The notes under the pieces: model-generated
Told to the model about the DNA's origin: nothing
Databases searched by the model: none
The model's input: the letters and a program-made list of their open reading frames with translations, nothing else
Source: a virus
Lineage: Duplodnaviria > Caudoviricetes
Length of the DNA stretch: 55,495 bases
IMG/VR virus record: IMGVR_UViG_3300021474_000001
Coordinates: 1-55,495 of that record
Direction: 5' to 3' (one strand)
Shown here: piece by piece, positions 24,053 through 50,546 of the stretch
Numbering within the stretch: position 1 is the stretch's first letter
Layout: each line of letters starts with the position of its first letter
Program-made: the position numbers and the translations under genes

Positions 24053-24088
24053 TTGACGCTATGAGAGCGTGCTAATCGGTTGTAACGG

Positions 24089-24616: not shown

Positions 24617-24629
24617 GGAGAGAATTATC

Positions 24630-33648: not shown

Positions 33649-35264
33649 TGCCGACTTACGATCCCATCACCTTCGTGATCGCGTACAACCCTTCGGGGCC
33701 GACCGCGCCTGTACCATCGCGCTTCGGCATTCAACTCGACTTCGCGGGCAATGCGCATATTATTGACCTAAGCGGCGCAACCTGGTCGGGCTTCATCGCA
33801 GCATACACGGGCGCAGGGCCAGTCGTCGGCGCGGTCCAGTTCAGTAACTCAATGATCTTCGCGCTCGGGCTGGACGTACCGCCGCAAATTTTCAAGCAGG
33901 ACGGCTCGCTCGCACAACTCGTCAACACGTTTCAGAGTTCGACCAATTTCCCGCCGTGGTTGCCGAGCACGCAGTACCCGCGCGGCGCACACATCATCGC
34001 GCCGTCTGGCGGCGTCGAGTACATCTTCAAGGCGATCAACGGCGGCACGAGCGGAACGACTGCACCAACGTTTCCCGCGGCTCTGCGCGCAACCGTCGTT
34101 GATAACGGCGTGACGTGGAAGAACAAGGGCACGGCCGCGAACGGCGCGGCGGGCAATATCACTGGCGCGGGCTTCGTATTCAACCACGAGAACTCGCTGT
34201 GGATTTGGGGCACCGCGCCGAATTACAACGGCAGCGCGATCGACGGTCCCGACTCGCTCAGGCAGTCCGACAACGGCGATCCGACTTCGTTCGACCCGAC
34301 CTTTCAGGATTTCGTCGGCGAAGGCGACGGGCAGATGCCGATGGGCGGAGGTCCGTGGACGCAACTCGAAGTAGGCATTCCCGCCAGCCCGCAACTCGTG
34401 CTGTTCAAAACCAAGAGCACGTATTCAGTGCTCGGGTCATTTCCTGACGTGTCGATTCAGCAGATTCCTGATGGCGTTGGTTGCTGCGCGGCAAATACGG
34501 TCCAGTTTGTTCCCGGCATCGGCATGATGCGGTTGTCGCCGCAGGGCGTCGCCGTGTTCTCAGGCACGCGGGACGTGGTGGATCAGTACACCGACCCTAT
34601 CCGGCACTATTTGTGGCCGGCGAGCGGAGATGCCGACATCAACGGTGTCGATTGGAATAATATTCAGCGCGCGTCCAGTGCGCAGACCGTTAGCCCGCCG
34701 GGGTATCTGCTGCTCGTGCCCCTCATCGGTAGCGGCGGCGCGCTCGTTCGCGGCTTTCACTTCGACCGGCTTCTCAAAGCGTGGACGATAATCGACTTCC
34801 CGCCGTCGATGCAGCTCGCGGCCGGCTACTACGAGCAGGCGACGCAGCGCCAGACCTCGACGTTCGTCGCCGGTTTCTCAGACGGCATCCTGCGGCAAAT
34901 CTTCGCGGGCGACGAGTTTTGGGACACAGAGCCGACCGATCCCATCGACGTGTCTTTCAGAATGGCGGGCGTCGGCGCTCCTGGTACGCCGATTTATCTG
35001 CGGCGAACGATCTTCCGGGCGGCGCTCCGCGGCACGACGGCGCAACTGCTCGGAGCAAACATTCTCTATCAGAACCAACAGGGCGACCAGCGCTTTACAG
35101 GGAAACTTCTCGAGACGGATGCGGGAGCGCTGACGCAAGCGATCGACATCGACATGACGACTCTCGGCGGCGCGGAACTTGAGTACTTCGGCGCGGGGCG
35201 TATGGTGATTCAGGGCATCGAAGTGGATTATCTGCCGAAACCGGCTACTAGGATTCCGGGATGA
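33648..35264 (+). CDS. Tail nozzle/stabilisation protein (P22 gp10/T7 gp12-like), lacking the usual N-terminus
   Basis: SD.GDPTSF, LVLFK, GVGCCAANTV, LSPQGVAVFSG; inserted W.PSTQY...SGTTAPTF...DNGVTW carbohydrate-binding-like repeat; TAATG start. Confidence 0.7.
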   Translation: MPTYDPITFVIAYNPSGPTAPVPSRFGIQLDFAGNAHIIDLSGATWSGFIAAYTGAGPVVGAVQFSNSMIFALGLDVPPQIFKQDGSLAQLVNTFQSSTNFPPWLPSTQYPRGAHIIAPSGGVEYIFKAINGGTSGTTAPTFPAALRATVVDNGVTWKNKGTAANGAAGNITGAGFVFNHENSLWIWGTAPNYNGSAIDGPDSLRQSDNGDPTSFDPTFQDFVGEGDGQMPMGGGPWTQLEVGIPASPQLVLFKTKSTYSVLGSFPDVSIQQIPDGVGCCAANTVQFVPGIGMMRLSPQGVAVFSGTRDVVDQYTDPIRHYLWPASGDADINGVDWNNIQRASSAQTVSPPGYLLLVPLIGSGGALVRGFHFDRLLKAWTIIDFPPSMQLAAGYYEQATQRQTSTFVAGFSDGILRQIFAGDEFWDTEPTDPIDVSFRMAGVGAPGTPIYLRRTIFRAALRGTTAQLLGANILYQNQQGDQRFTGKLLETDAGALTQAIDIDMTTLGGAELEYFGAGRMVIQGIEVDYLPKPATRIPG

Positions 35265-35683
35265 CGATCGAGAAATATCAACCGACAGGAGACTCGTTGG
35301 CCGGAACAGTCAACTACGGATCGTATCCTGCTCGCATTCTGTTGCCACCCGGTACGTTCAACCCGACACAGGAAACCGTGAATCCAGTCGGCGTGGTGTC
35401 GAGCGTCGGTGGCGCTGGCGGCGGCAATGCTCAAGTGACGACGAACGGAACGGCGGTGAATGCGGGGACGGCGCAGGCTCAGACGCCAGTGACTGTGGCC
35501 GGCGTGACGACCAGTTCAGTCGCGAGCTGGTCGCTGCCGAACGCGCCGGATGCGACATGGCAGACGGGGATCGCCGTGATGCTGGTCTGCACGGCCAACA
35601 CGGTGACGGTCTATCTCGTGAATCCAACGGCGGGACCGATTACGCCGATCGCGCAGGCAATAAATATCGCGGTGCAATTATAG
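35261..35683 (+). CDS. Small tail/virion protein
   Basis: VTVAGV...TANTVTV.L.NPT.G.ITP. Confidence 0.65.
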   Translation: MTIEKYQPTGDSLAGTVNYGSYPARILLPPGTFNPTQETVNPVGVVSSVGGAGGGNAQVTTNGTAVNAGTAQAQTPVTVAGVTTSSVASWSLPNAPDATWQTGIAVMLVCTANTVTVYLVNPTAGPITPIAQAINIAVQL

Positions 35684-35694
35684 GAGGGACGATT

Positions 35695-36264
35695 GTGGGT
35701 GCAGCAAGAGCGGTGGATGTTGGGAAGCGCAGGGAGTTGTTGATCGGGTGCGGGTCGAACCGCCTCAAGAAAGTCGCTAGAGGCGGCAATCACGAGTGGA
35801 GTTCTCTGACGACGCTCGATAATAACCCGTACCATAACCCTGACGTGAGATGGGACTTGGAGAATCTGCCGTTGCCGTTCGACGACGACAGCTTCGACGA
35901 GATTCACGCCTACTGCGTACTGGAGCACTTACGATCGCAAGGCGATTGGAAAGGTTTCTTCGCGGACTTCTCCGAATACTGGCGGCTGCTGCGCCCCGGC
36001 GGTTTCTTGATCGGTCTGACCCCGATGTGGAATTCCGAGTGGGCGTGGGGCGACCCATCGCATCGGAGAATCATCGGAGTGGCACAGTTCACCTTTCTCG
36101 ATCAAGCGGAATACACAAAGCAGGTCGGTGATACGCCCCTAAGCGATTTCCGATTCTGCTATAAGGCTGATTTCCAACTCGTCTGGCATCGAGTCGAAGA
36201 GAGTCAGCAGTTGGCGTTTATACTACAGGCGGTTAAGCCGTCGCGCATCGAGGAGGGACGATGA
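35695..36264 (+). CDS. Class I SAM-dependent methyltransferase (non-DNA type)
   Basis: LLIGCG; DLENLPLPFDDDSFDEI.A..VLEHL; WRLLRPGG; DPSH; GGAGG RBS before GTG 35695. Confidence 0.85.
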   Translation: MGAARAVDVGKRRELLIGCGSNRLKKVARGGNHEWSSLTTLDNNPYHNPDVRWDLENLPLPFDDDSFDEIHAYCVLEHLRSQGDWKGFFADFSEYWRLLRPGGFLIGLTPMWNSEWAWGDPSHRRIIGVAQFTFLDQAEYTKQVGDTPLSDFRFCYKADFQLVWHRVEESQQLAFILQAVKPSRIEEGR

Positions 36265-37121
36265 TTCACAAGGGACGAGTCGTAGTAGCTTACGCGCACG
36301 CGGGCAACGGAAAGATCGGATGGATGGAGTCTCTCCTGAAACTCCAAAAGTTCGATATGTACCACGAGCAGATCATCGAGGGCTTCGTCGGCTGCGGCGG
36401 GCACTTCACGACCGTAAACCGCAACGCCTGCGTGCAAGCCTTCATGGAACGCGAGAGCAAGCCTGAGTGGTTACTGTTCTTCGACACCGACATCGTGTTC
36501 CCGCAGTCGGAAGTGATTTACGGGCTGTACGAGGATGCCGACCCTATCGAGCGGCCCATCGTGTCGGGACTTTACTTCACGTACATCGACACCGGATTCA
36601 CGGCGACGTGGCTCAAGCGCAAAGACGATCCCGCGCTCGGCGAGTACCAATCGCTCAACCAGGTCGAGCCGGGGCTGCAGGAAGTGGACGGCATCGGCAT
36701 GGGCTGCGTCATCATTCACCGCAGCGTGTTGGAAAAAGTCGCCGAGGCGCATCCGCGCTCGCAAGATCCGTGGGTCTGGTTCGGGCACGACCTCGTGATG
36801 ACCTCGAAGGGACCGGATCGGCTCGGTGAGGATTTGACGTTTTGCCGACGCGCTCGCGAGTTGGGCTTCAAGATTTGGGGCGACGGGCGACTCGGCTTCA
36901 CGCATCTCAAGGAGCGCGAGGAGAACGTCGAGACGGTGATCGAGCGGTACAACGCGAAGCAGTTTGTCGATGGCGAGCAGGCGAAGGAGAACGCGGAACA
37001 CCAGAAGGCGATTGATGCGTTTTGGAACTATGCGCGCACGCCTGAATGGTTGGCGAGCGAATATTTCCCCTACAAAGGACCGCCGGACGAAACAGTTAAG
37101 AACGGAGCAATCATCCCATGA
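36261..37121 (+). CDS. GT-A fold (GT2-like) glycosyltransferase
   Basis: RN..V..F; WLLFFDTD (DxD); GMGCVIIHRSV; GEDLTFC; H.K. Confidence 0.88.
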   Translation: MIHKGRVVVAYAHAGNGKIGWMESLLKLQKFDMYHEQIIEGFVGCGGHFTTVNRNACVQAFMERESKPEWLLFFDTDIVFPQSEVIYGLYEDADPIERPIVSGLYFTYIDTGFTATWLKRKDDPALGEYQSLNQVEPGLQEVDGIGMGCVIIHRSVLEKVAEAHPRSQDPWVWFGHDLVMTSKGPDRLGEDLTFCRRARELGFKIWGDGRLGFTHLKEREENVETVIERYNAKQFVDGEQAKENAEHQKAIDAFWNYARTPEWLASEYFPYKGPPDETVKNGAIIP

Positions 37122-40100
37122 TGAAACGAGTCGCGGCGATAGCATTGCTCCTGCTGTTCGTGGTGGTGAGCTACGTCGTCACCATCCAGAATCCAGTGAA
37201 CGGGCCTCGATCAGCTTTTGCCGTGACTCCAACTCCTACAGCCCAAGTAACGTCGTCGCCTACAGCTTTGATTGGTGGCTCGAATCGCATGGGGTTCAAC
37301 CTTGGTGGCGATGACTATCAAGGCTGCTGCGGCGGCAACTACATGCAGAACATGTTTCAGAATCCCGGCCTCGAACCGTCAACGGACGGGCATCTGATCG
37401 ACGTGGGTCCGGGGGCAACCGGTAGTTCATTTACTGATACGACTGACAACGGTGCTGCGACAAACTACTGGGTGGGCGCGATAGCGTCGGTCAGAAGTGG
37501 CGCGGCGGCGGGCGACCAATTTACCATTACCGGCTACACGGCGGGCGGTTCCTATACCTTCGGCAGTTGTGAGAATGCTACGGGCGCCCCGATCAGTTGC
37601 CCCACCTTGGCAACCGGCGTGGCCGTGGGCGAAGTGCTCACCTCAGTCGATGTCGCGGGCAACATGGATACCAACGTCATCGGTGGCTGGGGCGGTGTTC
37701 ATGACGGACACTGCGTACTCTCCATCGCGGATAAGTACGAGGGCCAAGGTTCCATTGCTTGCAATGTCGCTGATGGTTCCGCCCACACCTTCAACTACGG
37801 GTGGGATTTGTCCACGACTACCGGCGGCGTGTGCTCGAATGACAGCGTAACTCCCTGTACCGTGGCGAATCAGACAGCGGATTGTGGAGGAGGGAATACC
37901 TGTCTTACGGCTCCGCAGGCTGGCCCGTGGCATCCCGTCGTCGGGGCGTTCGAGACTTCGTTTTGGGCCAAGGGTGCGAATACATCCACCGGCACGCCTC
38001 AAGTGTCGTTTCAACTCTACCGCACCGCTGGCGGTGGTGTGAACGTCAGTCACACATGGACGCTGACCAACGATGGCGCTTGGCATCAGTACACTTATTC
38101 CTTTACCGGCACGGATGTTGGCCCAAATCAAAATTCCTTGCTTTATCAATTTTCCACGACCAACAACTCGGCAGAGACTAGTGCGACCATCTACATCGAC
38201 GACGCCTATCTCGGCAAAGCAGCATCCTCAGCGACCGGTTTCCGCAACGAGATGCTAACTACCGTCAATGCGCTGAATCCCGGCTCGATGCGGTACGCGG
38301 CCTATGCGCAGTTGGGGACGAATGATCGGGGCTACGAGGGCGCGCAAGGCTGTAATCCGACACCTTCGTCGCCAACTACGACCGGCACTTGCGATATGTT
38401 GCACGGGGCTGCCTTTGATACCTACGGCGGCGCTCCGAATGGCAGCTGGACGTTCGCGGGGTCGGATGTCTACGCATTGGCGAATCAGACCAACTCGGTG
38501 CCATTTATGACGCTCGGAAACGTGATGAGCGACGCTGACCTCAAGAGCTTCATCGACAATCTGTGTACGGCAGTAAACACCTACAGCTTCCCATCAGCGT
38601 GGGTCGAAGGCGGCAACGAGAACTGGAATAACGGCGCGGGGCGTATCTCATTTGGCAACAATCCGGGTGCTTTGGGCTACGGCGGCACTTGGGGCCGCAA
38701 CTTCTCGGTTATGAACGCCGAAGCTACTGCCCACTGCGGCAGCGCGGTCGCGGCCAAGGTTCACTACATAATGAACAACCAAGCCTGCAACGGCGGCGTC
38801 ATCCAAACCGAGATAGCTGGCGCTGCCACGGCGGGTTTCGCCATTCCCAATACCAGTCAGTACGGAGGCGACGACGCGCCCTACTATCCGAACACGACCG
38901 CCATGCCGTTTGCGACGGGCAGCCTCGCGGCACAGGCGGCAACCTTCGCGGCCGATTTCTTCGGGTACATTCCTCAGTACGTCAATAACGGGAATGGTTG
39001 CACGGGTGGCGCGTCTAATGGCGACTACAGCTACGTTCAATCGAACAACGTGATCCCGTTCTACGAGGAAGGGCCGAACGCCTATTCGTCCAGTGGCGGC
39101 AGCACGACCGAACAGGGCTATCTCGCGCAAGCGGGCTACCCGAGCGCGGCGTGGATGGCGCAAAGCTGGCTATGGGGTCAGCAGCAAGGGCGAACGCCGC
39201 TGCAGAATGAGTATCAGCTCGCGCAGCCGGAGTTCGGCGGGTCAATCAGTGTGCCCATTTGGGGTTTCACGCACGACATGGATGCGGACTTCGGGCCGAC
39301 ATTCCCGCATCTGAGGTCCATCGGCATCGGTATGGAAATCGTCAACGGGGCGATCCAAGCCAACTATTATCCGATCACAGGGCTGCCGAGCGGTGTCGTA
39401 GGGAACGCCTATGGATCGAACGGGCTGGGCACGGGCAACATGAGCGCTGTGCTGGTCAACGGCAATGGCACTGCGCAATCCTTCGCGGTGGTGTTTCCGG
39501 CTGGCAGCACAGTTCCGCAGAGCTGTGTCGCATCCGTCTATACCAACGGTCTCGCCGACAACAATGAAAACTCCGACGATGTAACGGCGGGTGCTTGCAC
39601 CGGTGTCACGACTGTTGGACAGGCGGTCGGCATCACGTTGCGACCCTACCAAGTGGCGGCGATGGACGCCGGCACGCCAGGACCGACAGCAACAGCGACG
39701 GCGACCGCGACAAGCACAGCCACCGCAACGGCCACCGCTACTGCCACTGGAGGTGCGACGGCCACCGCAACTGCAACTGCGACCTCAACGGCCACAGCGA
39801 CAGCCACGAGCACGGCGACGGCCACTGCTACGACAAGCCCAACGCCAACTGCAGCTCCCACCGCAACTGCTTGCGCCGGCCTTCCTCCAACCACCGTCAC
39901 GATCACCGGCAACCTCTACGACAACTACGGAAATCCTTCGGTCGGTACGACGGTCGCGGTGACGCCGCTTAATCCGACCGCGCAGGGCTGTAGTCTGATC
40001 ATGGCGAATCCCGTGCCGACCAGCACGGACAAGTTCGGCCATTTCATCCTGAATGCAGTCGGCGGCATCTATTCCGCGGTGTCGTTTGCGGGCGGCGTCG

Positions 40101-40843
40101 ATCTACCGACGACGCTGATTCTGACGACGCTGCCGCAAACCGGCGTGGTGACGCTCTCTCAGCTTCTCGCCCAGCAATCGAATATCGTGACGAGTTTTCC
40201 GCCGAACGGAAATCTCAACATGAACGGATTTACGTTTCTGAACCTGGCAGGCGCGACCATCGCGGGGAATCCGGTGGTCGAGGGCTTGGGGTTGAGTGGC
40301 GGCGCCGTGTTCACGTCGAGTGGCACATTCACGGTCCCGCTGAACTCGACCTATATCGTCGCGACGCTCTTCGCTGGCGGGGGCGGTGGTGGTGGTGGAC
40401 ACGCAGGAACAAACGGTGGAGGCGGCGGAGGAGGTGGACAAATCCTACAATGCCTGATGCTTCCGGTGAACGGGACCATCACCGTGACGATTGGTGCGGG
40501 CGGCACCGCGGGTACGGCATCACCGAGCGCGGGCGGCAATGCGGCCGACACGACCGCGAGCCAGTCCTCATCCACGACGATCTGCGATGCTGGCGGCGGC
40601 TCAGGTGGCGCGGCGGGCTCGGGCGGTAGTCCTGGTGCGGGCGGTGCGGGCGGTGCTGCGAGTACGACGATTACCGGCGCCGCGATTCAGATGTTCGTGA
40701 CGACCGGCACCGCAGGCGCCAATGGCACGAGCAGCGCTGGTGGCACTGGCGCGGGGCTCGGGCTGTTCGGTGGCACGGGCGGAGCGCCGGCGGGCGCGGG
40801 CGTGGCGGGCGCGAAGGGAGTGGCATTGCTCAGGGCGTTCTAG
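37118..40843 (+). CDS. Exported clan-A-like glycoside hydrolase + Thr-Ala linker + tail-fibre-like/Gly-rich C-terminal module
   Basis: MMKR + hydrophobic N-terminus; GFR...LNPGSMRY; EGGNENWN; FYEEG; (TA)n ~39682-39870. Confidence 0.7.
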   Translation: MMKRVAAIALLLLFVVVSYVVTIQNPVNGPRSAFAVTPTPTAQVTSSPTALIGGSNRMGFNLGGDDYQGCCGGNYMQNMFQNPGLEPSTDGHLIDVGPGATGSSFTDTTDNGAATNYWVGAIASVRSGAAAGDQFTITGYTAGGSYTFGSCENATGAPISCPTLATGVAVGEVLTSVDVAGNMDTNVIGGWGGVHDGHCVLSIADKYEGQGSIACNVADGSAHTFNYGWDLSTTTGGVCSNDSVTPCTVANQTADCGGGNTCLTAPQAGPWHPVVGAFETSFWAKGANTSTGTPQVSFQLYRTAGGGVNVSHTWTLTNDGAWHQYTYSFTGTDVGPNQNSLLYQFSTTNNSAETSATIYIDDAYLGKAASSATGFRNEMLTTVNALNPGSMRYAAYAQLGTNDRGYEGAQGCNPTPSSPTTTGTCDMLHGAAFDTYGGAPNGSWTFAGSDVYALANQTNSVPFMTLGNVMSDADLKSFIDNLCTAVNTYSFPSAWVEGGNENWNNGAGRISFGNNPGALGYGGTWGRNFSVMNAEATAHCGSAVAAKVHYIMNNQACNGGVIQTEIAGAATAGFAIPNTSQYGGDDAPYYPNTTAMPFATGSLAAQAATFAADFFGYIPQYVNNGNGCTGGASNGDYSYVQSNNVIPFYEEGPNAYSSSGGSTTEQGYLAQAGYPSAAWMAQSWLWGQQQGRTPLQNEYQLAQPEFGGSISVPIWGFTHDMDADFGPTFPHLRSIGIGMEIVNGAIQANYYPITGLPSGVVGNAYGSNGLGTGNMSAVLVNGNGTAQSFAVVFPAGSTVPQSCVASVYTNGLADNNENSDDVTAGACTGVTTVGQAVGITLRPYQVAAMDAGTPGPTATATATATSTATATATATATGGATATATATATSTATATATSTATATATTSPTPTAAPTATACAGLPPTTVTITGNLYDNYGNPSVGTTVAVTPLNPTAQGCSLIMANPVPTSTDKFGHFILNAVGGIYSAVSFAGGVDLPTTLILTTLPQTGVVTLSQLLAQQSNIVTSFPPNGNLNMNGFTFLNLAGATIAGNPVVEGLGLSGGAVFTSSGTFTVPLNSTYIVATLFAGGGGGGGGHAGTNGGGGGGGGQILQCLMLPVNGTITVTIGAGGTAGTASPSAGGNAADTTASQSSSTTICDAGGGSGGAAGSGGSPGAGGAGGAASTTITGAAIQMFVTTGTAGANGTSSAGGTGAGLGLFGGTGGAPAGAGVAGAKGVALLRAF

Positions 40844-42780
40844 TGGGGAAGTCTTTCTCATGGACGGTCCTATTCCTGCTCGTAGCGACCACGGCGAGCG
40901 CGGGGATCGGCCTCGTGGGTAGTCCGCCGACTCCGCAGGTCACGACGAGTTGTTCATCGGGAACGATGGTATTTCCTTCAGTCAACGTGACGGCGGGCGA
41001 TGCTCTCGTCATTCAGTGGATCGGAACTTCGAGCGGCACAAATCCGCAGAACGCGACGAGCATGACCGACAATAACGGTCAGACTGATGGGACTGGCGCG
41101 AGCTGGATTCAACTCAACCAGACTCAAGTGACAAGCCCAGGACGGCAGACGGGGCACTGGTGGGCACCGAACCACAATTCGGGACCGACAATCGTGACGG
41201 TGCATTTCTCAGGCGGAAGCGCAGGAACGTGCGGCGGCATCGCGTACCTTGAAGAATGGTCGGGAATCAAGCGGACTGGGAATCCCGAGTTTCAGCCCAC
41301 GAATAGCGGGACGGGTACGTCGGTGACGGCAGGCACGGCGACGTGGAGCGCGGGCGATCTTTTACTCTCCGCGGGCGGACAGGTGGACACGGCCGCGGCG
41401 ATAGCGGGTGGGCCGACTAACTCGTTCACCGAATTTATGGACCCGACGAATCCGGCTGATACGGTGCCGATGGCGGCGTATCGTATCTTCGCGGCGGGCG
41501 GGACGCTCGGAACGACGTGGACGACGACGAACTCGGCGGCGTGGCAGGCGAGTCTAATCGGAATGCTTGCGGCCCCAGCGACAGCAACTCCTACCGCCAC
41601 AGCCACCGCGACGGCAACTGCGACCGCTACCGCCTCGGCCACAATCACGGCTACTCCAACCGCGACGGCGACGGCGACCGCAACGGCGACGGCCACCGCT
41701 ACTGCCACGAATGTTGCTACGGCGACTGCGACGCTCACGGCGACGGCTACGGCGACCATCAGCGCTACTCCGACAATCTCCGCGACCCCAACGGCGACGG
41801 CCACCGCAACGGCTACTCCTGTCGGAATTCCCACCGTTACGGTCACGGGCTGCGTGTACGACTTCTTCGCCAACCCAGTCGTCGGCACTGTCGTCGGCAT
41901 TTTCCCGCTCAAAGCAACGCCGGAGAACGGAAACGCCGTCGTCGCGAATCCGGTAGCGACCAACACGAATCTGCAGGGCTGCTTCTCGCTTCAGGTGGTC
42001 GGCGGGATCTACGACGCCTTCTACGTTCAGGGCAGCACGACGATGCCGATGGCGCTGCTCAAGGCGACACTGCCGCTGTCGGGGACGATCTCGTTCTCAA
42101 GCCTGCTTCCGCCGTCGAGCTCGGTCACGGCTTCTTTCCCGCCTGCTGGGAATCTTAGCTTGGCGGGGTTCACCTTCACGGGAGTCGGGTCTGCGTCGAT
42201 TGCGGGACAGATGGTGGTCGAGGGCGCAGGGTTGGACGGCGGGCAAATCTTCATCGTGAACGGCGTCTATACGCCACCGATGAATGCAACGTGGGTAGTG
42301 GCGACGTTGCTCGGAGGTGGAGGCGGCGGCGGCGGCGGAGCTACAGGTTCTACGCATGGCGGAGGCGGAGGGGGCGCGGGTGATTTGCTCCAATGTCTCA
42401 TGCTACCTTCTGACGGGACCGTAAGTGTCACGGTGGGCGCAGGAGGCAGCGGTGGTGCGGCGACAGTCAGCGGATCAGCGGGGACCGATTCGACGGTCAG
42501 TCAGCAGGGCGCGACGACGATTTGCGATGCGGGAGCGGGTAGTGGTGGGACTGGAGGGTCTGGCGGTGGAAACGGCACGGGTGGCGCAGGTGGCGGGGGA
42601 ACCATAACTGGCGTGGCGATGCAGATGTTCAACACGGCGGGAGCAAACGGTGCGAATGGCACGGGGGCGCTCGGCGGGGCGGGTGGAGGGATTGGATATT
42701 TCGGCGGGACGGGCGGCGCGCCGAATGGGCAGTCGGGCGTTGCGGGAAGGAGCGGGATTGTCCTCATGAGGTCGTTCTGA
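40843..42780 (+). CDS. Exported protein + Thr-Ala linker + paralogous tail-fibre-like/Gly-rich C-terminal module
   Basis: Signal peptide ending ASA; EEWSG domain; (TA)n ~41575-41820; C-terminal ~315 aa colinear with upstream gene. Confidence 0.75.
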   Translation: MGKSFSWTVLFLLVATTASAGIGLVGSPPTPQVTTSCSSGTMVFPSVNVTAGDALVIQWIGTSSGTNPQNATSMTDNNGQTDGTGASWIQLNQTQVTSPGRQTGHWWAPNHNSGPTIVTVHFSGGSAGTCGGIAYLEEWSGIKRTGNPEFQPTNSGTGTSVTAGTATWSAGDLLLSAGGQVDTAAAIAGGPTNSFTEFMDPTNPADTVPMAAYRIFAAGGTLGTTWTTTNSAAWQASLIGMLAAPATATPTATATATATATATASATITATPTATATATATATATATATNVATATATLTATATATISATPTISATPTATATATATPVGIPTVTVTGCVYDFFANPVVGTVVGIFPLKATPENGNAVVANPVATNTNLQGCFSLQVVGGIYDAFYVQGSTTMPMALLKATLPLSGTISFSSLLPPSSSVTASFPPAGNLSLAGFTFTGVGSASIAGQMVVEGAGLDGGQIFIVNGVYTPPMNATWVVATLLGGGGGGGGGATGSTHGGGGGGAGDLLQCLMLPSDGTVSVTVGAGGSGGAATVSGSAGTDSTVSQQGATTICDAGAGSGGTGGSGGGNGTGGAGGGGTITGVAMQMFNTAGANGANGTGALGGAGGGIGYFGGTGGAPNGQSGVAGRSGIVLMRSF

Positions 42781-43163
42781 TGAGACCCGCTATAGCCGAC
42801 CGCAATATGGCATCACTCATATCGCTCATAACCATTCTGCTGACCGTGGAAGTTCTCGCTTATCGGAAAGTTTACTTGGACGCTTACGACCTCAAGATGC
42901 AACCCATTTATTTAGAGCAGGGTCGGACGCCGCTAAACTATTATGCTTGGCAGGACGAGGACCATCGTTACGTCATCTCGGTATTACAGAACGGCGGAAC
43001 GCTAACCTTCGAGAACGTCACGGGCGGGCTTCCGCCTTTCAAGACAGCAATCGTCGGGTCGATAACCGGCGTGGGGACAATTCGCGTGCCAGCACCACAG
43101 CAGGACCAAGATATGTACGTTGATTCGACGGGGACAGCGGAGGTGCAGGTGCAAGCGCGATGA
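42780..43163 (+). CDS. Membrane-anchored/exported hypothetical protein
   Basis: N-terminal hydrophobic helix; coupled on both sides. Confidence 0.6.
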   Translation: MRPAIADRNMASLISLITILLTVEVLAYRKVYLDAYDLKMQPIYLEQGRTPLNYYAWQDEDHRYVISVLQNGGTLTFENVTGGLPPFKTAIVGSITGVGTIRVPAPQQDQDMYVDSTGTAEVQVQAR

Positions 43164-45259
43164 GACGACTACTGCCATTTCTGGTTCTGTTCTCACTACC
43201 GTGGAGCACTGTGGTATGGGCGCAGGTACTCTGTCCCCTATGCGATTGCTCCTTCGATGCGATCTCCGGTTCTACTACTGCCTCGACCGGCGGTAATCTC
43301 AATACGAGCATCGCGATTGCGGACCCAGGTGTTCACGTCGGGGATTCGGTGCTGTGCCTGGTCGGCTACGACTCGTACCTGCACGGAATTAATGCGATCG
43401 ATAATACATGGACGAATCTCGGGAATCTCCAACTGCCTGATGGCTCAGGCGAATCGTTGCTCTTGCAGAACTACCCCGGATCGTACCCGACCGCCAGTTT
43501 TCAAAACCTGAGCACTCTGATTGCCGAGAACTGGTCCGCTATCTGCGTCGCGAGTTCGTATCGCGCGTCTCTCGATGGCCTTGTGACGAGTCTGGCGAAT
43601 GCCGCCTCGACCACCGCCACGGCTCCCAAAGTCGTGATAGACCAGACCCTCACGTCCCTGTTCAACTTCTGCTCCACGCCGGGAACGATCACATTCTCGT
43701 CGCCTACTCTCGGATCGCTGGTCACGCAGCAGCACGCTTTCGGGCCGAGTGTGGCTGTAGCCAATAGCCGCGATGCGATTGTCTCTCCTACGTCCGCGAA
43801 CCAGATCACGCTCAGCACTTCGGCGGTGTCGGGCTGCATATCGGCGGCGTTCAAGTGCGGCCCGAATCCGACCGCGACTGCGACCGCCACAGCTACACCA
43901 ACGGCGACGGCTACGGGCGCGACTGCTACCGCCACTGCGACCGCTACACCAACGGCCACCGCATCACCCACCGGCTCGATCACGAATATCGTGGTGATCG
44001 AGAAAGAGAATCGCAGCTACGATAATTATTTCGGGACGTTCCCGTGTTCGGGCGGACCTTGCGGAGTCTCGACGGCGACCCTGAGTACGGGGGCCACCTA
44101 CGCGCTGACACGCGGAATGGATACGACCTCGACGGACTTCGACCACGACTACATTCCATTCATCACCGACATCGACGGCGGCTTGATGGACGGTTTCGAT
44201 AAGGCTCCGTGGTGTACCTCGACCAGCACGCCGCCCTATGGGTGCCTGATCCAGCAGGTGCAGGCGGACATCCCGAACTACTGGACGCTGGCGACGAATT
44301 ACGCGCTCGGCGACAATATGTTCCCGGACATCATCGGTCCCAGCCAGCCGAATCACTTGGCCATGCTGTTCGCGAGTTCATTCTTTGACATCAGCAATAC
44401 GTGGAACAACGGCACGACACAGAGCTGGGGCTGCGATGCGCCGCTGAAAGCTAGCGACTGCACGGCGGCGAACGTGCCAGGGCCGCAATGCACTGGCGCG
44501 GGAACCTGCCCGACTTGTACGGCGACTACTTCCGCTTACGTTCAACTTCTAGGGCAGACACCGAATACGAAGTACCCATGCTTCACGCAGACTTCGCTTA
44601 TGGACGAGGCGGCAACCGCCAGCGTCAGTTTCAAATGGTACGGTGATATAACCTTCGGCGACACCGGCTACTACTGGACCGCGCCGGATGAGCTGATCCG
44701 CTTCACCAACGGGACCGCGAATTGGACGAGTCACGTCGTGGCATCGACCCAATTCACCACCGATGCCGACGCAGGCACGTTGCCTCAGATCGCGTGGGTC
44801 ACGCCGGACCTCGCGCACAGTGAGCATCCGCTGGAAGGTATTTGCACCGGCGAGAACTGGACGATGAATCTGCTCAATCATCTGTTCGCAGGGCCGCAGG
44901 GAGCGCATACCGCCGTGTTCATCGTGTGGGATGAGAGCGGCGGTCTCTACGATCATGTGAATCCGCCAGTCATTCAGAGTGTCGGCGCGAATCGACTGTC
45001 GGCTGGTCCGCGCGTGCCGGTGCTGGTCGTCTCGCCTTATGCCCGCGCGACTGGTGGCGTTGCTGCGAACGTAATCCATACGCAGGTGCTATTCTCTTCG
45101 ATTGTGAGGCAGATCGAAAACCAATTCGGACTGCCGCGACTCGGCGGGCACGACTCGACCGTGAACGACATGAGCAGTTTTCTCAACCTGAACCAGACGC
45201 CGATAACGTGGACGCCGCTGGTTCAGAGAACAGGTGGATCGTGCGTTACATCGCCGTAG
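43160..45259 (+). CDS. Exported phosphoesterase (AcpA/phospholipase C family) with N-terminal beta domain and Thr-Ala linker
   Basis: MRRLL signal peptide; IVVIEKENRSYDNYFG; GPSQPNH; SEHP; WDESGGLYDHV.PP; GPRVP.LVVSPYA. Confidence 0.9.
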   Translation: MRRLLPFLVLFSLPWSTVVWAQVLCPLCDCSFDAISGSTTASTGGNLNTSIAIADPGVHVGDSVLCLVGYDSYLHGINAIDNTWTNLGNLQLPDGSGESLLLQNYPGSYPTASFQNLSTLIAENWSAICVASSYRASLDGLVTSLANAASTTATAPKVVIDQTLTSLFNFCSTPGTITFSSPTLGSLVTQQHAFGPSVAVANSRDAIVSPTSANQITLSTSAVSGCISAAFKCGPNPTATATATATPTATATGATATATATATPTATASPTGSITNIVVIEKENRSYDNYFGTFPCSGGPCGVSTATLSTGATYALTRGMDTTSTDFDHDYIPFITDIDGGLMDGFDKAPWCTSTSTPPYGCLIQQVQADIPNYWTLATNYALGDNMFPDIIGPSQPNHLAMLFASSFFDISNTWNNGTTQSWGCDAPLKASDCTAANVPGPQCTGAGTCPTCTATTSAYVQLLGQTPNTKYPCFTQTSLMDEAATASVSFKWYGDITFGDTGYYWTAPDELIRFTNGTANWTSHVVASTQFTTDADAGTLPQIAWVTPDLAHSEHPLEGICTGENWTMNLLNHLFAGPQGAHTAVFIVWDESGGLYDHVNPPVIQSVGANRLSAGPRVPVLVVSPYARATGGVAANVIHTQVLFSSIVRQIENQFGLPRLGGHDSTVNDMSSFLNLNQTPITWTPLVQRTGGSCVTSP

Positions 45260-45516
45260 TACTCATTCTGGCCGGATGCAACCCGTATCGCGGGAACCCT
45301 GACGGCATCTCGCAGGAGTCGGTCTGGCAGGCGCGGCAGGCGATCTGCGATGCGGCGCGGACTGGACGCCAGCTCGACCCAGACGCGGCGATGGGGATGG
45401 CGATTTTCGATTACGAGAACGGAGAGTGGGACGACGATGACTGCGTGATCCGTCCGAAGGCAGGGCAGATAGGCAAGCTGCTGGACTTGGGTTCAGCGAG
45501 GCCGGATTGGTCGTGA
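45241..45516 (+). CDS. Small lipoprotein
   Basis: VRYIAVVLILAGC lipobox. Confidence 0.55.
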   Translation: MRYIAVVLILAGCNPYRGNPDGISQESVWQARQAICDAARTGRQLDPDAAMGMAIFDYENGEWDDDDCVIRPKAGQIGKLLDLGSARPDWS

Positions 45517-47174
45517 GACGAATAGCACTCATCGCCGTGTTGCTCGCGTTTCTCTTACCGACGAAGGGATGGGCGCAGAGCGCCGTCGATTCGACTAGCA
45601 TCGTTCAGCATAAATCCTGCCCCAACCTGACGCCGAGCGGGTCTGTGGCGACGTGCGCGTTTACGAGTGCCCCGGCAGTCGGCAACCTCATCATCGCCAT
45701 CGGAGCCACGGCGGGCACGACGATCACACAGACCTTCACGAGCAACAACGGCACCTGCACCTCGCGAGAGTTACAGACCGGCCAGAACTCAGGACAGCAA
45801 ATCTCGGAATGTACGGTCACCGCGAACGTGGCTACGACCATCACGGATACCCTCTCGTCGCTCAACGGCTTGACCGCCATCGAAATCATGGAAGTCCACG
45901 ACACGGGCGGCGTCGTTTCTTTCGACGTGGCGGGCGGCGTGAAGAACGGATCGGCGTCGGCGAACGTATCGAGCGGCGCGACGGGAGCGACTAACAACGT
46001 GGTGGACTTCTGCGTGGCAGCGCTCAGCTTCGCCAGCACGATTGGCAAGACGCCCACGGCGGGTCCGGGGCTGCTCGCGGCGGCTGTGCCGAGTGCGTGG
46101 AACGTGATCGACAACAACACGACCGCAGGGCCGGGAATGCTGACTGCGAGCACCGTGACGAGCGCATCGGCGTTAGCAGTAGCCTCAGCGTGGTCGTGGA
46201 GTGGCGCTACTTCAACCACAGGCGGCACGGTCTGCTACAAGGGGCAGGTGCAGCCGACGATTGCGCCAGCGGGGACGCCGACGACAACTGTGTACACGGC
46301 CGTTTCCTCTTCCGCGATTACTCTCGCTAGCAGTTCGGCGTCCGCGTGTAATCGGGTTCAGTTATGCGACAGTACTGGCCTATTAAGCTCGCCCTCATGT
46401 ACGTGCACTGGGGGAACCTGTACGCGAGTGCTTGGACCGACAACATGGAACACCATTCAGAGCAAGGCTGTGTTTTTCTGTAATGGTTGCACGGGTAGCT
46501 TATCCTGTTCTTTTGGAGTCACCGCCAATGGGGTTGCGGCAGTTGACGCTTTTACCGGATCGTCGTGCGCGACAGATTGTTCAGGCGCGGGCGATCAGAC
46601 AGGAAGCAGTGCGACCTCAACCTCAAATAGTTTGACGAGTTGCAATCAAGGCGATGCGCTCTTGTACGACGCTTGTAATAACGGCGGGGGGGCTTATTCA
46701 AATTCTACTCCGTTGGCCAGTACAGCGTCGCTCAATACCACTGCTACTCCCGCCAGTCTTCTCGCCTACTACTTCGACACCGCCCCCTCGACCAACACCA
46801 GCCCCGCGCAGAGTCGCACACAGGGCAACGTCGCATGGGTATCCGGTGCGGTAGGGCTGGGACCGGCGTCAGCGGCGACTGCGACGGCAACGGCGACTGC
46901 GACCGCCACGGCAACAGCAACTGCTACAGCGACAGCTACGGCCACCGCAACGGCGACAGCTACGGCCACTGCTACCGCGACCGCTACAGCCACAGCAACG
47001 GCTACCGCAACAGTGACAGCCACGCCCACGCCGATCGCTACTCCGACGGCGACGGCTACGGCTACGGGCGGTGCCACTAACCCAACGCCCATTCCGCAAT
47101 CTCTCGGACAACCCGGCTTCGGCCCATCACGACCATTAGGCTCTCGACCTGAAGGATTTGGAGGAGTTCTATGA
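45507..47174 (+). CDS. Exported Cys/Ser/Thr-rich protein with long C-terminal (Ala-Thr)n tract
   Basis: RRIALIAVLLAFLL...GWA signal; two beta domains; (AT)n ~46873-47070. Confidence 0.75.
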   Translation: MVVRRIALIAVLLAFLLPTKGWAQSAVDSTSIVQHKSCPNLTPSGSVATCAFTSAPAVGNLIIAIGATAGTTITQTFTSNNGTCTSRELQTGQNSGQQISECTVTANVATTITDTLSSLNGLTAIEIMEVHDTGGVVSFDVAGGVKNGSASANVSSGATGATNNVVDFCVAALSFASTIGKTPTAGPGLLAAAVPSAWNVIDNNTTAGPGMLTASTVTSASALAVASAWSWSGATSTTGGTVCYKGQVQPTIAPAGTPTTTVYTAVSSSAITLASSSASACNRVQLCDSTGLLSSPSCTCTGGTCTRVLGPTTWNTIQSKAVFFCNGCTGSLSCSFGVTANGVAAVDAFTGSSCATDCSGAGDQTGSSATSTSNSLTSCNQGDALLYDACNNGGGAYSNSTPLASTASLNTTATPASLLAYYFDTAPSTNTSPAQSRTQGNVAWVSGAVGLGPASAATATATATATATATATATATATATATATATATATATATATATATATVTATPTPIATPTATATATGGATNPTPIPQSLGQPGFGPSRPLGSRPEGFGGVL

Positions 47175-47617
47175 AACGGTTACTCGCATTCGTCCCCGCG
47201 CTCGTTCTGGTCCTCTGGGTCAGCCTCGCGCATAGCATCAGCTATGTTGGGGTCATACCGGGAGGCGCTGGTTCCGCGACGCCCAAAGCTGTCGGCACGG
47301 CAACGCCGGTCGCAGTTATCGCGTGTGGTTCCGGCGCGAACTACATCAAATTCAATGTGACAGGCGGCACCGCCGGCACAGACGGATGCTTCATCACCGT
47401 CTCAAGCACGCTTGCGTCGCCGTGCGCGGCCGCGAGTCCGGCACCGAGCGTCAGCCCGCAGGTGGGAGATTTCGCGCCGACTGGCGGCACCTACCCCAGC
47501 GCGAGCCCTCTGACATATAACTACGCGAACCAGGTCGGCTCCTACTGGATGAACGGCGAGTGGGATGCGGTCTGTACCGCGGCGAGCATGACGGTGACGC
47601 CTGTCACGCTGCCGTAG
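47171..47617 (+). CDS. Small exported protein
   Basis: MKRLLAF...SLAHS signal peptide; four Cys. Confidence 0.7.
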   Translation: MKRLLAFVPALVLVLWVSLAHSISYVGVIPGGAGSATPKAVGTATPVAVIACGSGANYIKFNVTGGTAGTDGCFITVSSTLASPCAAASPAPSVSPQVGDFAPTGGTYPSASPLTYNYANQVGSYWMNGEWDAVCTAASMTVTPVTLP

Positions 47618-48109
47618 ATGCAACCCATCACCGACATCACGTCGCTGCTGACCTTCGAGGAAGGGGATCGCTTATTCGTGTACGACGACCACACCGGCAA
47701 GCCGATTACGAAGGGAAGTCATTGCTTCGGCAATCCAACTATCGGTCGCGGACGCGCGTTAAATATCGAAGGCATTTCAGAAGTCGAAAGCACCTACCTG
47801 CTCAACAACGACGTGGCCCATTGGCGTGCGGAGTTGAGTCAGTTCTCTTGGTACACCAATCTCGATCAGGTGCGGCGTGACGCAATCGTCAACATGGCAC
47901 ACGCGCAGGGCGTCGCGGGCGTCGAGGGCTATCACGACATGATCGCGGCACTCGTGAAGGAGCATGCCGAGACGGTGGCGGCGCTACAGGCTCAGGACTG
48001 GAAGGCGGCGCGTGATGCCGTGCTGCTGTCACGCTGGGCAGGTGAAGACTCTGAGCGGGCGACTCGATGTGCCAACATGCTGTGGTCTGGGGTGTACCCG
48101 ATAGTATGA
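47618..48109 (+). CDS. Endolysin, T4-lysozyme-like muramidase (GH24)
   Basis: EEG.RL.VY.D.TG...TIG.G; L...R.DAIVNM; S.WA...RA.R. Confidence 0.88.
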   Translation: MQPITDITSLLTFEEGDRLFVYDDHTGKPITKGSHCFGNPTIGRGRALNIEGISEVESTYLLNNDVAHWRAELSQFSWYTNLDQVRRDAIVNMAHAQGVAGVEGYHDMIAALVKEHAETVAALQAQDWKAARDAVLLSRWAGEDSERATRCANMLWSGVYPIV

Positions 48110-48192: not shown

Positions 48193-48582
48193 GTGGTACC
48201 TTCAGGCAATCTGTACGGCCTCCTCACGGCAGCGCTCTTGATTCTCAACACGATAATGGTGTGGTGGTCAGGCCGGGCAACGCGCGGAACCGTCAAGGAC
48301 GAAGGGAGCGCCACCCGCGACGACGTGAAAGAAGTTCACACACTGGTCAATAGCGGACTGACCAAATTGATCCAATCGAAGGACGAGACCATCGCGAGCA
48401 CCGAGCGCGCCGCCAGCGCGGAAGGGAAGGCCGAGGGGATAGCACAGGAACGCGAACGGCACGAAGCCTCGTCGATGACGGCGGCACTGAGAGTAATTGA
48501 CGAGCCAGTCCAACCGGCGAAATCGGGTGACTCCATCACGTTGGAAGCGCCTGTGAAAATTGAGGTCACGGAAAAGAAATAG
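48193..48582 (+). CDS. Single-TM lysis-module protein
   Basis: N-terminal TM; EVHTLVNS. Confidence 0.6.
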   Translation: MVPSGNLYGLLTAALLILNTIMVWWSGRATRGTVKDEGSATRDDVKEVHTLVNSGLTKLIQSKDETIASTERAASAEGKAEGIAQERERHEASSMTAALRVIDEPVQPAKSGDSITLEAPVKIEVTEKK

Positions 48583-48592
48583 GAGAACGCAA

Positions 48593-48814
48593 ATGATTTT
48601 AGGGTGTTTAATTAATCTGATTATCTTGGTCATCATCGCCGTCATCATTCTCTACATTCTGGAAGTGGCGTTGCAGCCGTTCATGGCGCTGCCCGCTCCG
48701 GTCTACACGCTGATTCGCCTGCTCATCGGGCTGCTGATCCTCTTGCAATTCCTGAACTGCATCGGATTCCTTGGCACGTATGGCGGGTATCATTCGGAAC
48801 CGTTCATACGCTGA
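48593..48814 (+). CDS. Two-TM membrane protein (holin candidate)
   Basis: AGGAG RBS before MILGCL; two hydrophobic helices. Confidence 0.65.
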   Translation: MILGCLINLIILVIIAVIILYILEVALQPFMALPAPVYTLIRLLIGLLILLQFLNCIGFLGTYGGYHSEPFIR

Positions 48815-49134
48815 TGGCAGACACGACGCCGATAGTCGAAACCACTGTCACCGAAAAGAAAGTGGGAGATGCCGCGACGCAGCAACCGCCGCCGCCGCAG
48901 ATTATAGCCGATGACAACGCCCGTAAATGGCTCGCTGTTGGGGTCATCGTTCAATTCCTACTGGTCATCGGCTACATCGTGTACACAGGCAAAGGTCAGG
49001 TTCAGGCGAGCAATACCGAACTGATGATTCTCGGTGCAGAAGTCACCTTCATGACGACCGTGCTGAACTACTATTTCGGTAGCAGCAGCGGCTCGACCGC
49101 AAAATCGCAGATTCTCGACACCAAGACCAAATGA
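48814..49134 (+). CDS. Holin-like two-TM protein
   Basis: TVLNYYFGSSSGS..K motif. Confidence 0.7.
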   Translation: MADTTPIVETTVTEKKVGDAATQQPPPPQIIADDNARKWLAVGVIVQFLLVIGYIVYTGKGQVQASNTELMILGAEVTFMTTVLNYYFGSSSGSTAKSQILDTKTK

Positions 49135-50213: not shown

Positions 50214-50329
50214 TGAAGAAAAATCCTCACGCGGTCGCGCTCGGACGCAAGGGCGGCAAGGCCAAGACTCCCGCCAAGGCGAAAGCGGCGCGCGAGAACG
50301 CCAAGAAAAAGGTGAAGCATGACTCGTAA
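50213..50329 (+). CDS. 38-aa Lys-rich peptide (KNPHAVALGRKGG type)
   Basis: MKKNPHAVALGRKGGKAKTPAKAKAARENAKK. Confidence 0.7.
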   Translation: MKKNPHAVALGRKGGKAKTPAKAKAARENAKKKVKHDS

Positions 50330-50546
50330 ACTGATTGCTCTCGCGGCGCTCTCGATGCTGATTTATGGTTGCTCAACGTTGTGCTCGATACCGGGCATCT
50401 CGTCGCTGAACGTCTGCACACAGCCTACAGCCTCGGCTAGCGCCACTGACACGCCGACTGCTACGCCATCGCCAACCGCCGTAGCGAATGCGCCGTGGCC
50501 CGTAGCTCCAACCGGACTGCCGACACCTCGACCGGGGATTAACTGA
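50319..50546 (+). CDS. Lipoprotein with Thr/Pro tail
   Basis: LIYGC lipobox; TPTATPSPT. Confidence 0.65.
   Translation: MTRKLIALAALSMLIYGCSTLCSIPGISSLNVCTQPTASASATDTPTATPSPTAVANAPWPVAPTGLPTPRPGIN

Follow-up and report, generated by a model that had tools for sequence, protein, structure and literature searches.

Why would a tailed phage give over the slot of its tail fibres to proteins that appear to leave the cytoplasm, when textbook tailed phages build every part there? The question is raised by positions 35695-47617 of IMG/VR record IMGVR_UViG_3300021474_000001, the genome of a soil phage with direct terminal repeats that is rated 100% complete and whose entire 55,495 bases are referred to here as the window. 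The block covers 11,923 of these bases (21.5%, in line with the fifth of the genome that an earlier note on this DNA had assigned to it) and consists of a methyltransferase (MTase) gene, a glycosyltransferase (GT) gene and then seven genes of exported type, gp1241, gp645, gp127, gp699, gp102, gp555 and gp148, which together span 37118-47617 (10.5 kb, 19% of the genome). We regard export of the seven proteins as near-certain. Our preferred reading, to which we give a probability of roughly one half, is that they are enzymes and binders made late, folded in the periplasm and acting on the surface polysaccharide of the host, without being built into the particle. Gene order, the leaders and how well they are conserved, the Cys bias, the domain identities and the origin of the glycosidase in a host locus are shown by sequences and structure models, from which we infer the substrate, the timing, the export as such and the absence of the proteins from virions.

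Predicted leaders, cysteines and Thr-Ala linkers

Leaders were called with a crude heuristic of our own combined with reading of the sequences, not with a dedicated predictor. By this heuristic a leader is predicted in 7 of the 7 exported-type genes and in 0 of the 18 virion-module genes that run from the terminase to gp140, which bears out the earlier count of about seven consecutive genes with a signal, transmembrane (TM) or lipobox sequence. All seven N-termini show a basic stretch followed by a hydrophobic one. AXA-type cleavage sites, read by eye and with the heuristic, are clear in gp645 (ASA↓G), gp699 (VWA↓Q), gp555 (GWA↓Q) and gp148 (AHS↓I), the N-termini of gp1241 and gp127 resemble uncleaved membrane anchors, and gp102 possesses a lipobox (VVLILAG↓C) that fits the signal peptidase II pattern, the corresponding sequence in its homolog from the related phage G2 being LLAA↓C. 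Leaders are kept in homologs from G2, L006 and L094, three phage sequences that are described below, in 7 of 7 close whole-module homologs, and as leaders or anchors in 39 of the 53 homologs of the gp1241 enzyme domain whose N-terminus is complete. This conservation persists at 38-78% protein identity.

The seven proteins are also rich in cysteine, as had been claimed: Cys makes up 2.08% of their residues (73 of 3506 amino acids, aa), whereas the virion module has 29 Cys among 6030 aa (0.48%). Counts in the mature proteins are all even (22, 6, 0, 20, 2 plus the lipobox Cys, 18 and 4, in gene order from gp1241 to gp148), and the Cys content fits extracytoplasmic folding. It is the leaders, their persistence among diverged homologs, and the contrast of this Cys pattern with a Cys-poor virion and with leaderless tail proteins of the Gly_rich_2 type that lead us to judge export near-certain, and to this extent the earlier suggestion of exported proteins holds up. 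Tat export is conceivable for gp699 and gp555, both of which have Arg-Arg, yet these two proteins are rich in Cys and have short leaders.

The four long Thr-Ala tracts that had been reported were located in gp1241 (aa 851-918), gp645 (aa 243-328), gp699 (aa 237-273) and gp555 (aa 452-524). Their DNA is made of mixed codons in imperfect repeats with 64-81% matches, and linkers of this type are abundant in the bacterial homologs of the gp1241 enzyme. The tracts thus have the appearance of the host lineage's ordinary interdomain linkers, for which this GT would be unnecessary. Homology was seen to break at the Thr-Ala linkers (39668-39871, 41569-41826, 43868-43978 and 46860-47078 in the window) in 4 of 4 comparisons, namely gp1241 with a 1013-aa protein of G2, gp555 with a 662-aa protein of G2, a 147-aa protein of the phage fragment L008 with the tail of gp555, and gp1241 with gp645, and the linkers may be joints for domain shuffling.

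Some further observations concern leaders and cysteines. Predicted cleavage sites of the form A↓Q, with Gln at +1, are frequent by eye in phage and host-like proteins alike (gp699, gp555, G2, G1, L094, P0097, P0099, P0103 and P0041); a Gln rule at +1 of leaders has been described for Bacteroidota. Outside the block lie additional small lipoprotein-like genes at 50319-50546, which could encode the outer-membrane component of a spanin, and at 53368-53739, which is conserved in G2 (3266-3637). In the virion module the open reading frame (ORF) at 24089-24616 has 10 Cys, far above its neighbours; it competes with a minus-strand ORF at 24059-24670 and is possibly mis-called.

The predicted enzymes of the block and their partners

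The largest product, gp1241 (37118-40843), consists of a signal or anchor, a beta-sandwich resembling carbohydrate-binding modules (CBMs), a predicted clan GH-A glycosidase with its own C-terminal beta-sandwich, the Thr-Ala linker, a further beta-sandwich and a Gly_rich_2 end, and carries 22 Cys. No named family was found for aa 30-880 in Pfam, NCBIfam or PHROG, nor any sequence match in the PDB, and the assignment comes from structure models. The model of the catalytic part, built with 62 sequences (predicted local distance difference test (pLDDT) 77.5, predicted template modelling score (pTM) 0.82), was matched by Foldseek in the PDB to GH51 arabinofuranosidases and to GH79 heparanase and glucuronidases (E 8e-14 to 1e-10, template modelling score 0.5-0.6). 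A weaker first model (aa 30-880, 13 sequences, pLDDT 51) gave with VIA a match to GH30 (Z 13.5), and matches to CBM16/61/4/22 (Z ~10-11) for residues 43-339 of the model, approximately aa 72-368 of gp1241. Clan GH-A enzymes place the acid/base Glu in an N-E motif and the nucleophile Glu some 100-150 residues later; in the 62 sequences N141-E142 and E291 are invariant. On these models the gp1241 enzyme has the clan GH-A fold, a (beta/alpha)8 barrel with a C-terminal beta-sandwich.

We found 73 homologs of gp1241 aa 30-880 at 26-98% identity, many of them on contigs of 0.2-2.4 Mb and one named Candidatus Binatus sp., and a scan of species genomes yielded 15 loci in metagenome-assembled genomes (MAGs) labelled "uncultured delta proteobacterium", often with several copies per genome. 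When 32 neighbouring proteins from six of the 15 loci were searched against Pfam, 27 were matched, the families including ABC-2 exporters, GT1/GT2/GT4, Wzy_C, Poly_export/SLBB, Bac_transf and RmlA-D, with no phage structural family among the matches from these six loci. The bacterial loci are sites of surface-polysaccharide synthesis and export and not prophages, and the glycosidase itself is host-derived. The host of the phage is probably a Binatia-like Gram-negative bacterium.

Behind the linker of gp1241 lies a C-terminal module of beta-sandwich plus Gly_rich_2 (39878-40840) that is shared with gp645 (40843-42780), a protein in which the leader is followed by an N-domain of ~215 aa, the Thr-Ala linker and the same module, with 6 Cys. 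PF21722 (Gly_rich_2) is matched by gp1241 at 38.4 bits and by gp645 at 40.7 bits against a cut-off of 24.3, and at 43 bits by both in a six-frame search. The module of gp1241 is 50% identical to aa 328-522 of gp645, and its PHROG matches are annotated as tail fibre or minor tail (phrog_2295, 2.5e-16; phrog_863, 4.1e-15; phrog_6202, 'tail fiber protein', 1.8e-5). Cys192 and Cys236 of the module are invariant in 10 sequences. A homolog of gp645, P0098, retains a leader, and four of the whole-module homologs (P0097, P0099, P0100 and P0102) have no part beyond leader and module. Sequence searches found no relatives of the module in IMG/VR or in cultured phages, and no virion-attachment domain was recognised in the block proteins with Pfam, PHROGs or NCBIfam. 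A shared "lectin-like" N-domain of gp645, gp699, gp555 and gp613, the last a virion-module protein, was also entertained and set aside as unsupported by local jackhmmer searches; a lead from ESM-Atlas is that one set of unnamed clusters, most of them viral, resembles both the gp645 N-domain and gp555.

The second predicted enzyme is gp699 (43160-45259; 20 Cys), in which the leader, an N-domain of ~210 aa and the Thr-Ala linker precede a phosphoesterase of the AcpA/phospholipase-C type. The match to PF04185 is full length (E 1.6e-54, 185.8 bits against a cut-off of 23, positions 1-356 of 356), and against the acid phosphatase PDB 2d1g (6e-19) the EN, GPS and D-E..DH motifs align, which we take to be the metal-binding, nucleophile Ser and acidic-pair catalytic residues of AcpA. 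Among records of cultured phages PF04185 is very rare, with 4 partial matches. Between the window and G2 or L006 the phosphoesterase has 96.5-98% identity; this near-identity across phages occurs where flanking genes are 73-79% identical and, in G2, head genes are unrelated, and it suggests recent lateral exchange of the gene.

The remaining products are mostly small. No family match was found in Pfam, PHROG or NCBIfam for gp127, gp102 or gp148. The first (42780-43163) is a small protein with a single N-terminal membrane anchor and 0 Cys; jackhmmer found no local homolog, and its last 21 aa are identical in L006. The small lipoprotein gp102 (start at 45208 or 45241, end at 45516; lipobox L-A-G-C) overlaps the end of gp699, and its homologs are 73% identical in G2, where the lipobox is present and the gene again lies beside the phosphoesterase, and 94% identical in L006. 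In gp555 (45507-47174; 18 Cys) a leader and two domains of ~210 aa are followed by a Thr-Ala tract of 73 residues and a conserved tail of 31 aa; a search of 5.8 billion sequences gave one homolog (P0096, 38%), and the G2 homolog is 76-78% identical over aa 1-455 with the same leader. The 31-aa tail (47079-47174) is 100% identical in L006 (3974-4066) and L008 (428-520), in one of which an unrelated protein precedes the linker, and it could be a docking peptide or else part of a recently exchanged gp148-endolysin block. Directly 5' of the endolysin, gp148 (47171-47617; 4 Cys) is 100% identical in L006 and 88% in L008, with the endolysin next in each.

Gene order, related phages and the glycosyltransferase-methyltransferase pair

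The placement of the block between tail genes and endolysin with overlapping starts and stops, as first described, was confirmed. Directly 5' of it lie the virion-module genes gp613 (with an NHL-like propeller), gp546 and gp140 (together 31807-35683), all without leaders, and directly 3' lies the leaderless endolysin (47618-48109; phrog_7 endolysin, 3.2e-8; 66% identical in G2). From gp546 through the endolysin every gene is on the plus strand, as are all the block genes, and start and stop codons overlap or abut: the consecutive overlaps from the MTase on are 4, 4, 1, 1, 4, 19-52, 10 and 4 nucleotides (nt), and the gap to the endolysin is 0 nt. Promoter- and terminator-like sites in the block showed no excess over shuffled sequence. 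The lysis region that follows (48193-49134) encodes three proteins with TM segments: one of 129 aa with a single N-terminal segment (94% in G2), a holin-like one of 84 aa with three segments and one of 106 aa with one.

Elsewhere in the window PHROG profiles identify the large terminase (15414-17246), the portal (18162-19904) and the major head protein (23042-24052), and the left arm encodes RecT, a DnaB-type helicase, a DNA methylase and endonuclease VII. Cultured phages are remote kin, with terminase identities of merely 21-25%. No integrase was detected among the window proteins with Pfam, PHROG and further searches, and for this reason we assume expression in the lytic cycle and have set lysogenic conversion aside.

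Two near-complete or complete relatives illustrate how mosaic the locus is. G1 (51 kb, 92% complete, head protein 82% identical) retains the head and tail genes as far as its homolog of gp546 and has no block gene, GT or MTase. In its fibre slot lie four proteins without leaders (470, 147, 316 and 223 aa), and a leader-bearing protein with the beta-sandwich only lies beyond the lysis genes. G2 (49.7 kb, 100% complete) has unrelated head genes and carries a cassette of three genes for leader-bearing proteins, namely the homologs of gp699 (96.5%), gp102 (73%) and gp555 (78%), along with an exported-type protein of 543 aa; elsewhere in G2 the glycosidase (65%), with a different C-terminal domain, adjoins the endolysin. 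A search with the window as positive control found neither GT nor Gly_rich_2 in G2. The ~80-aa Cys-rich C-terminal domain of the G2 glycosidase (44124-47165, locus L014) also occurs as a stand-alone leader-bearing protein of 111 aa just upstream (43834-44169). Such inheritance, with G1 lacking the block and the G2 cassette lying elsewhere, is what one would expect if these were accessory cassettes. Two fragmentary sequences, L006 and L008, come from closer relatives. L094, a 42-kb metagenome contig, encodes homologs of gp613 (64%), gp546 (77%), the MTase (69%) and, adjoining it, the GT (68%), after which come two proteins that combine leader, linker and the C-terminal module of gp1241 and gp645, and three others with linkers.

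The extra domains of gp613 are found only in the module-bearing phages (the window and L094) and not in G1, and its middle domain resembles both repeats of the exported 543-aa protein of G2 (E 4e-6 and 1e-3). In G1 a 593-aa protein (43664-45445) consists of the first 56 aa of gp613 fused to a gp546-like part, and both the window (31807-35264) and L094 have ~550 aa, comprising a domain of no known kind and the NHL-like propeller, together with a stop and restart between those parts; the arrangement suggests that a tail gene was split by a domain insertion.

The first two genes of the block encode cytoplasmic-type enzymes. The MTase (35695-36264, 189 aa, no leader) starts with GTG at 35695, with a Shine-Dalgarno sequence AGGAGGG 6 nt 5', and matches Methyltransf_11 of Pfam above its cut-off (E 3.1e-6, 28.2 bits against 21.2), as befits a class I S-adenosylmethionine (SAM)-dependent enzyme; a SAM methyltransferase had been proposed at the outset. 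The neighbouring enzyme (36261-37121, 286 aa, no leader or TM segment) had been called GT2-like, and a GT2-like enzyme of GT-A type is suggested by matches to PHROG glycosyltransferase families at 5e-20 to 2e-11 (phrog_1574, 5.1e-20; phrog_34859, 'glycosyltransferase', 3.2e-14) and by the invariance of D75 and D77 (DxD) and G189-E190-D191 (GED) in 16 sequences. The GT itself has no Pfam match at E 0.01, and PF13641 is present in some of its homologs. The family is widespread in phages, with at least 564 IMG/VR stretches and 131 records of cultured phages, for the most part cyanophages and mycobacteriophages of cluster J; the window GT is 27% identical (E 2e-12) to annotated GTs of the cluster J phages. 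In one of these, Optimus, the homologous GT neighbours the capsid gene and is accompanied by an MTase, a kinase and four further GTs. Close relatives were found neither in IMG/VR nor in metagenomes when the single protein was used as query. One distant homolog, P0094, is fused to methyltransferase domains, and its MTase part is weakly like the window MTase (E 0.009).

What the GT accompanies was examined at 79 distant GT loci. None of 462 nearby ORFs, from 39 of these loci, combines a leader with a T-rich linker, no ORF across all 79 is matched by a hidden Markov model (HMM) of the module, and when the 37 window proteins from the terminase on, which comprise virion, block and lysis genes and the MTase, were compared with the 79 loci only the GT was matched, with no MTase relative there. 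Nearer to the window, GT and PF21722 module occur together in the window and L094, and neither is present in G1 or G2. The GT homologs P0077 and P0081 come from contigs of 23,173 and 27,817 bp, sizes identical to those of the contigs bearing the module proteins P0097 and P0098, and they appear to share contigs with them. The close GT clade would thus track the Gly-rich module, not the linkers, on two contigs that were read and two that were matched by size; because the phages in question are related and not independent, this is weak evidence of a functional link. The earlier note had proposed the Thr-Ala linkers as targets of the GT, and this part is not supported: the complete genome of G2, searched with a positive control, has at least 6 leader-plus-linker proteins and no GT, the GT family was found in 0 of 5 host-like genomes or MAGs with the same linkers, and P0097, which co-occurs with a GT homolog, has no linker. 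Its expectation that GT and MTase would lie beside Thr-rich genes in relatives meets with a divided result: it is borne out in the closer L094, where the GT again goes with Gly_rich_2 and not with the linkers.

Competing explanations and comparison with known systems

In the scheme that we favour, the seven proteins would leave the cytoplasm late in infection by the Sec and lipoprotein routes of the host, and would fold with disulfides in the periplasm or remain membrane-anchored there without becoming parts of the particle. The gp1241 protein would be a copy of a glycosidase from a host-lineage polysaccharide locus, joined to a binding module taken over from the tips of tail fibres, with gp699 as an acid-phosphatase/phospholipase-C-type phosphoesterase, gp645 and gp555 as binders and gp102 as a lipoprotein partner. 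The surface polysaccharide of the infected cell, likely both receptor and matrix, could be trimmed or destroyed from within, and after lysis the free, stable enzymes might loosen the matrix and keep progeny off debris. The MTase and GT would form a separate cytoplasmic two-gene unit, co-inherited with the Gly-rich-module genes. We favour free or envelope-bound enzymes because the architecture, with a leader, a binding or catalytic domain, a Thr/Ala linker and a second domain, is that of secreted carbohydrate-active enzymes, because the glycosidase has retained the N-terminal anchor seen in its host homologs, enzymes that presumably act in the periplasm on nascent polysaccharide, because the minimal homologs of leader plus module have nothing to attach with, because a lipoprotein and an anchored protein lie inside the block and the enzyme of gp1241 is N-terminal, and because the cassettes move independently and occur outside the fibre slot too. 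The earlier note had offered either surface remodelling or appendages that mature in the periplasm; export and the enzyme identities fit the former, and its Thr-Ala tracts as glycosylation targets are not supported.

Several points weigh against this scheme. The leader calls come from a heuristic and from reading of sequences, and the substrate and the effect on the host surface are what we infer. The block occupies the exact fibre slot, its translation is coupled to that of tail and lysis genes, tailspikes typically have glycosidase activity, and Gly_rich_2 ends the annotated minor tail proteins gp37 and gp43 of the cultured phage Optimus. The leaderless 470-aa protein of G1 in the same slot can be read as a functional replacement. 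The closest host-lineage phosphoesterase that was found is just 38% identical to that of gp699. Finally, gp085-087 of Cellulophaga phage phi18:3 (NC_021794) have clear leaders, and their annotation places them in the virion or tail "based on experimental MS/MS proteomics" (tandem mass spectrometry), a status that is that of the record annotation only, and which implies that leader-bearing proteins can reach particle preparations.

Much of this would be accounted for if the exported, disulfide-folded proteins docked at lysis on virions built in the cytoplasm, as recognition or depolymerase gear fitting sockets on gp613, gp546 or gp140. The fibre-slot position and coupling, the Gly_rich_2 ends shared with Optimus minor tail proteins and PHROG tail-fibre families, the leaderless G1 protein in the slot, the confinement of the extra gp613 domains to the window and L094, and the recurrence of the gp613 middle domain in an exported G2 protein all speak for it, and phi18:3, where the proteins concerned lie upstream of the endolysin, led us to raise our estimate. 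We nevertheless hold docking, the main rival to our scheme, to be possible but somewhat doubtful: no docking domain was recognised, the minimal homologs are leader and module only, gp102 would be lipid-anchored and gp127 and probably gp1241 membrane-anchored, the enzyme domains are those of ordinary host-type secreted enzymes, such genes also lie outside the fibre slot in G2 and G1, and the phi18:3 proteins have no similarity to the window, besides which co-purification does not amount to assembly. Its fullest form, gear of two compartments in which a capsid, tail and leaderless socket (gp613, gp546 or gp140) made in the cytoplasm would be joined at lysis by the exported glycosidase, phosphoesterase and Gly-rich binders, perhaps sugar-tagged by the GT and MTase, strikes us as slightly less likely still; we know of no such two-compartment assembly route described for tailed phages.

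It is unlikely, in our view, that the block is a secreted glycoprotein system in which the proteins would be decorated by GT and MTase ahead of their export, the acceptor being either the Thr-Ala tracts or the Gly-rich module, in analogy to the cytoplasmic glycosylation of autotransporter or serine-rich adhesins. The joint presence of GT and PF21722 in the window and L094 and their joint absence from G1 and G2, the equal contig sizes of P0077/P0081 and P0097/P0098, and the fusion of one GT homolog to MTase domains would suit such a system, against which stand the many leader-plus-linker proteins of G2, the linker-bearing host-like genomes and the linkerless P0097 already cited, the empty surroundings of the distant GT loci and the relatedness of the co-occurring phages; in Optimus the position of the GT beside the capsid gene, with MTase and other GTs, suits glycosylation of the virion or of something else. 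Quite unlikely, too, is that the genes are unrelated cargo in a recombination-prone slot, for example a phosphate-scavenging phosphoesterase and an exclusion-factor lipoprotein. Independent movement of the cassettes, the phosphoesterase being far closer than its neighbours between phages with differing head genes, and the breaks at every linker compared would agree with cargo, but all seven genes share export and Cys richness, four share the linker style, two share a module, and all are tightly coupled in one operon. That the hydrophobic N-termini are no export signals, and that we are dealing with tail fibres or spikes of the usual cytoplasmic kind, is highly improbable: position and the tail-fibre-type C-terminal domain would be explained, but not the leaders in every block gene and in no virion-module gene, the classic lipobox and AXA-type sites, the conservation of leaders among diverged homologs, the roughly four-fold Cys excess with even counts, or the fact that canonical Gly_rich_2 tail proteins are leaderless with 0-1 Cys.

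To our knowledge the exported proteins known from phages are single lysis or exclusion factors. What appears to be new here is a seven-gene exported block in the fibre slot, a glycosidase of host polysaccharide-locus type fused to a fibre-tip domain, and a phage-borne enzyme of the AcpA/phospholipase-C type. The block would point either to phage "exo-enzymes" as a class, matured in the periplasm and set free when the cell lyses, or to an assembly that spans two compartments, should the proteins join the virion, and either reading alters how fibre-slot genes of uncultured phages are annotated. It could also be a source of stable enzymes that degrade polysaccharides, and a first way of approaching the phages of Binatota, an uncultured phylum; our literature search, which covered a limited collection, found no paper on Binatota phages and none with the term PF21722.

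Among known systems, modular secreted carbohydrate-active enzymes of bacteria and the PslG-type periplasmic glycosidases of exopolysaccharide loci resemble the block in architecture, and glycosyl hydrolase genes are frequent in exopolysaccharide synthesis clusters according to excerpts of PMC9075953. Like these, gp1241 has a leader or anchor, a CBM-like domain, a predicted clan GH-A domain, a Thr/Pro/Ala linker and a second binding module, and its bacterial homologs lie in polysaccharide synthesis and export loci; unlike them, it sits in the late operon of a lytic-type phage, is fused to a tail-fibre-tip domain and has no Pfam or CAZy assignment. In the same way gp699 resembles Francisella AcpA and Pseudomonas PlcH/PlcN (PF04185) along the full length of the family, with metal-binding and nucleophile motifs aligned, and differs from them in being phage-borne and in its extra N-terminal domain of ~210 aa and Thr-Ala linker.

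With tailspike and tail-fibre depolymerases and with gp37 and gp43 of Optimus the block shares its position in the genome, the glycosidase class and the extreme C-terminal Gly_rich_2, but the Optimus proteins have no leader and 0-1 Cys, whereas gp1241 and gp645 have leaders, 6-22 Cys and no recognised virion-attachment domain, and the enzyme of gp1241 is N-terminal. The consecutive leader-bearing proteins gp085-gp087 of phi18:3 lie just upstream of lysis genes as here, but they show no sequence similarity to the window, belong to a phage of another host phylum and have 0-3 Cys; no enzyme, lipoprotein, GT or MTase was seen among them. Excerpts of the respective papers describe Sec-exported phage proteins in leader-bearing fOg44 Lys44 and the signal-arrest-release (SAR) endolysins (PMC6116005), an exported phage lipoprotein in Llp of T5 (PMC9586334), and leader-bearing proteins encoded by P. 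gingivalis phages (PMC10367356). The block resembles these in its predicted use of the general secretion of the host and in a small lipoprotein beside host-recognition genes; those are single lysis or exclusion genes, and here there are seven genes over 10.5 kb, mostly for large enzymes and binders, while gp102 lacks any Pfam, PHROG or NCBIfam match and is like the exclusion lipoproteins of Llp/Cor type in position and lipobox only. Glycans are borne by the capsids of Che8 and Rita, as excerpts of PMC11256854 describe, and the GT of the window belongs to the same broad family (27%) as that found with an MTase in the structural operon of Optimus; unlike these mycobacteriophage sets, of which they are distant kin only, the GT and MTase described here adjoin exported proteins and not a capsid gene.

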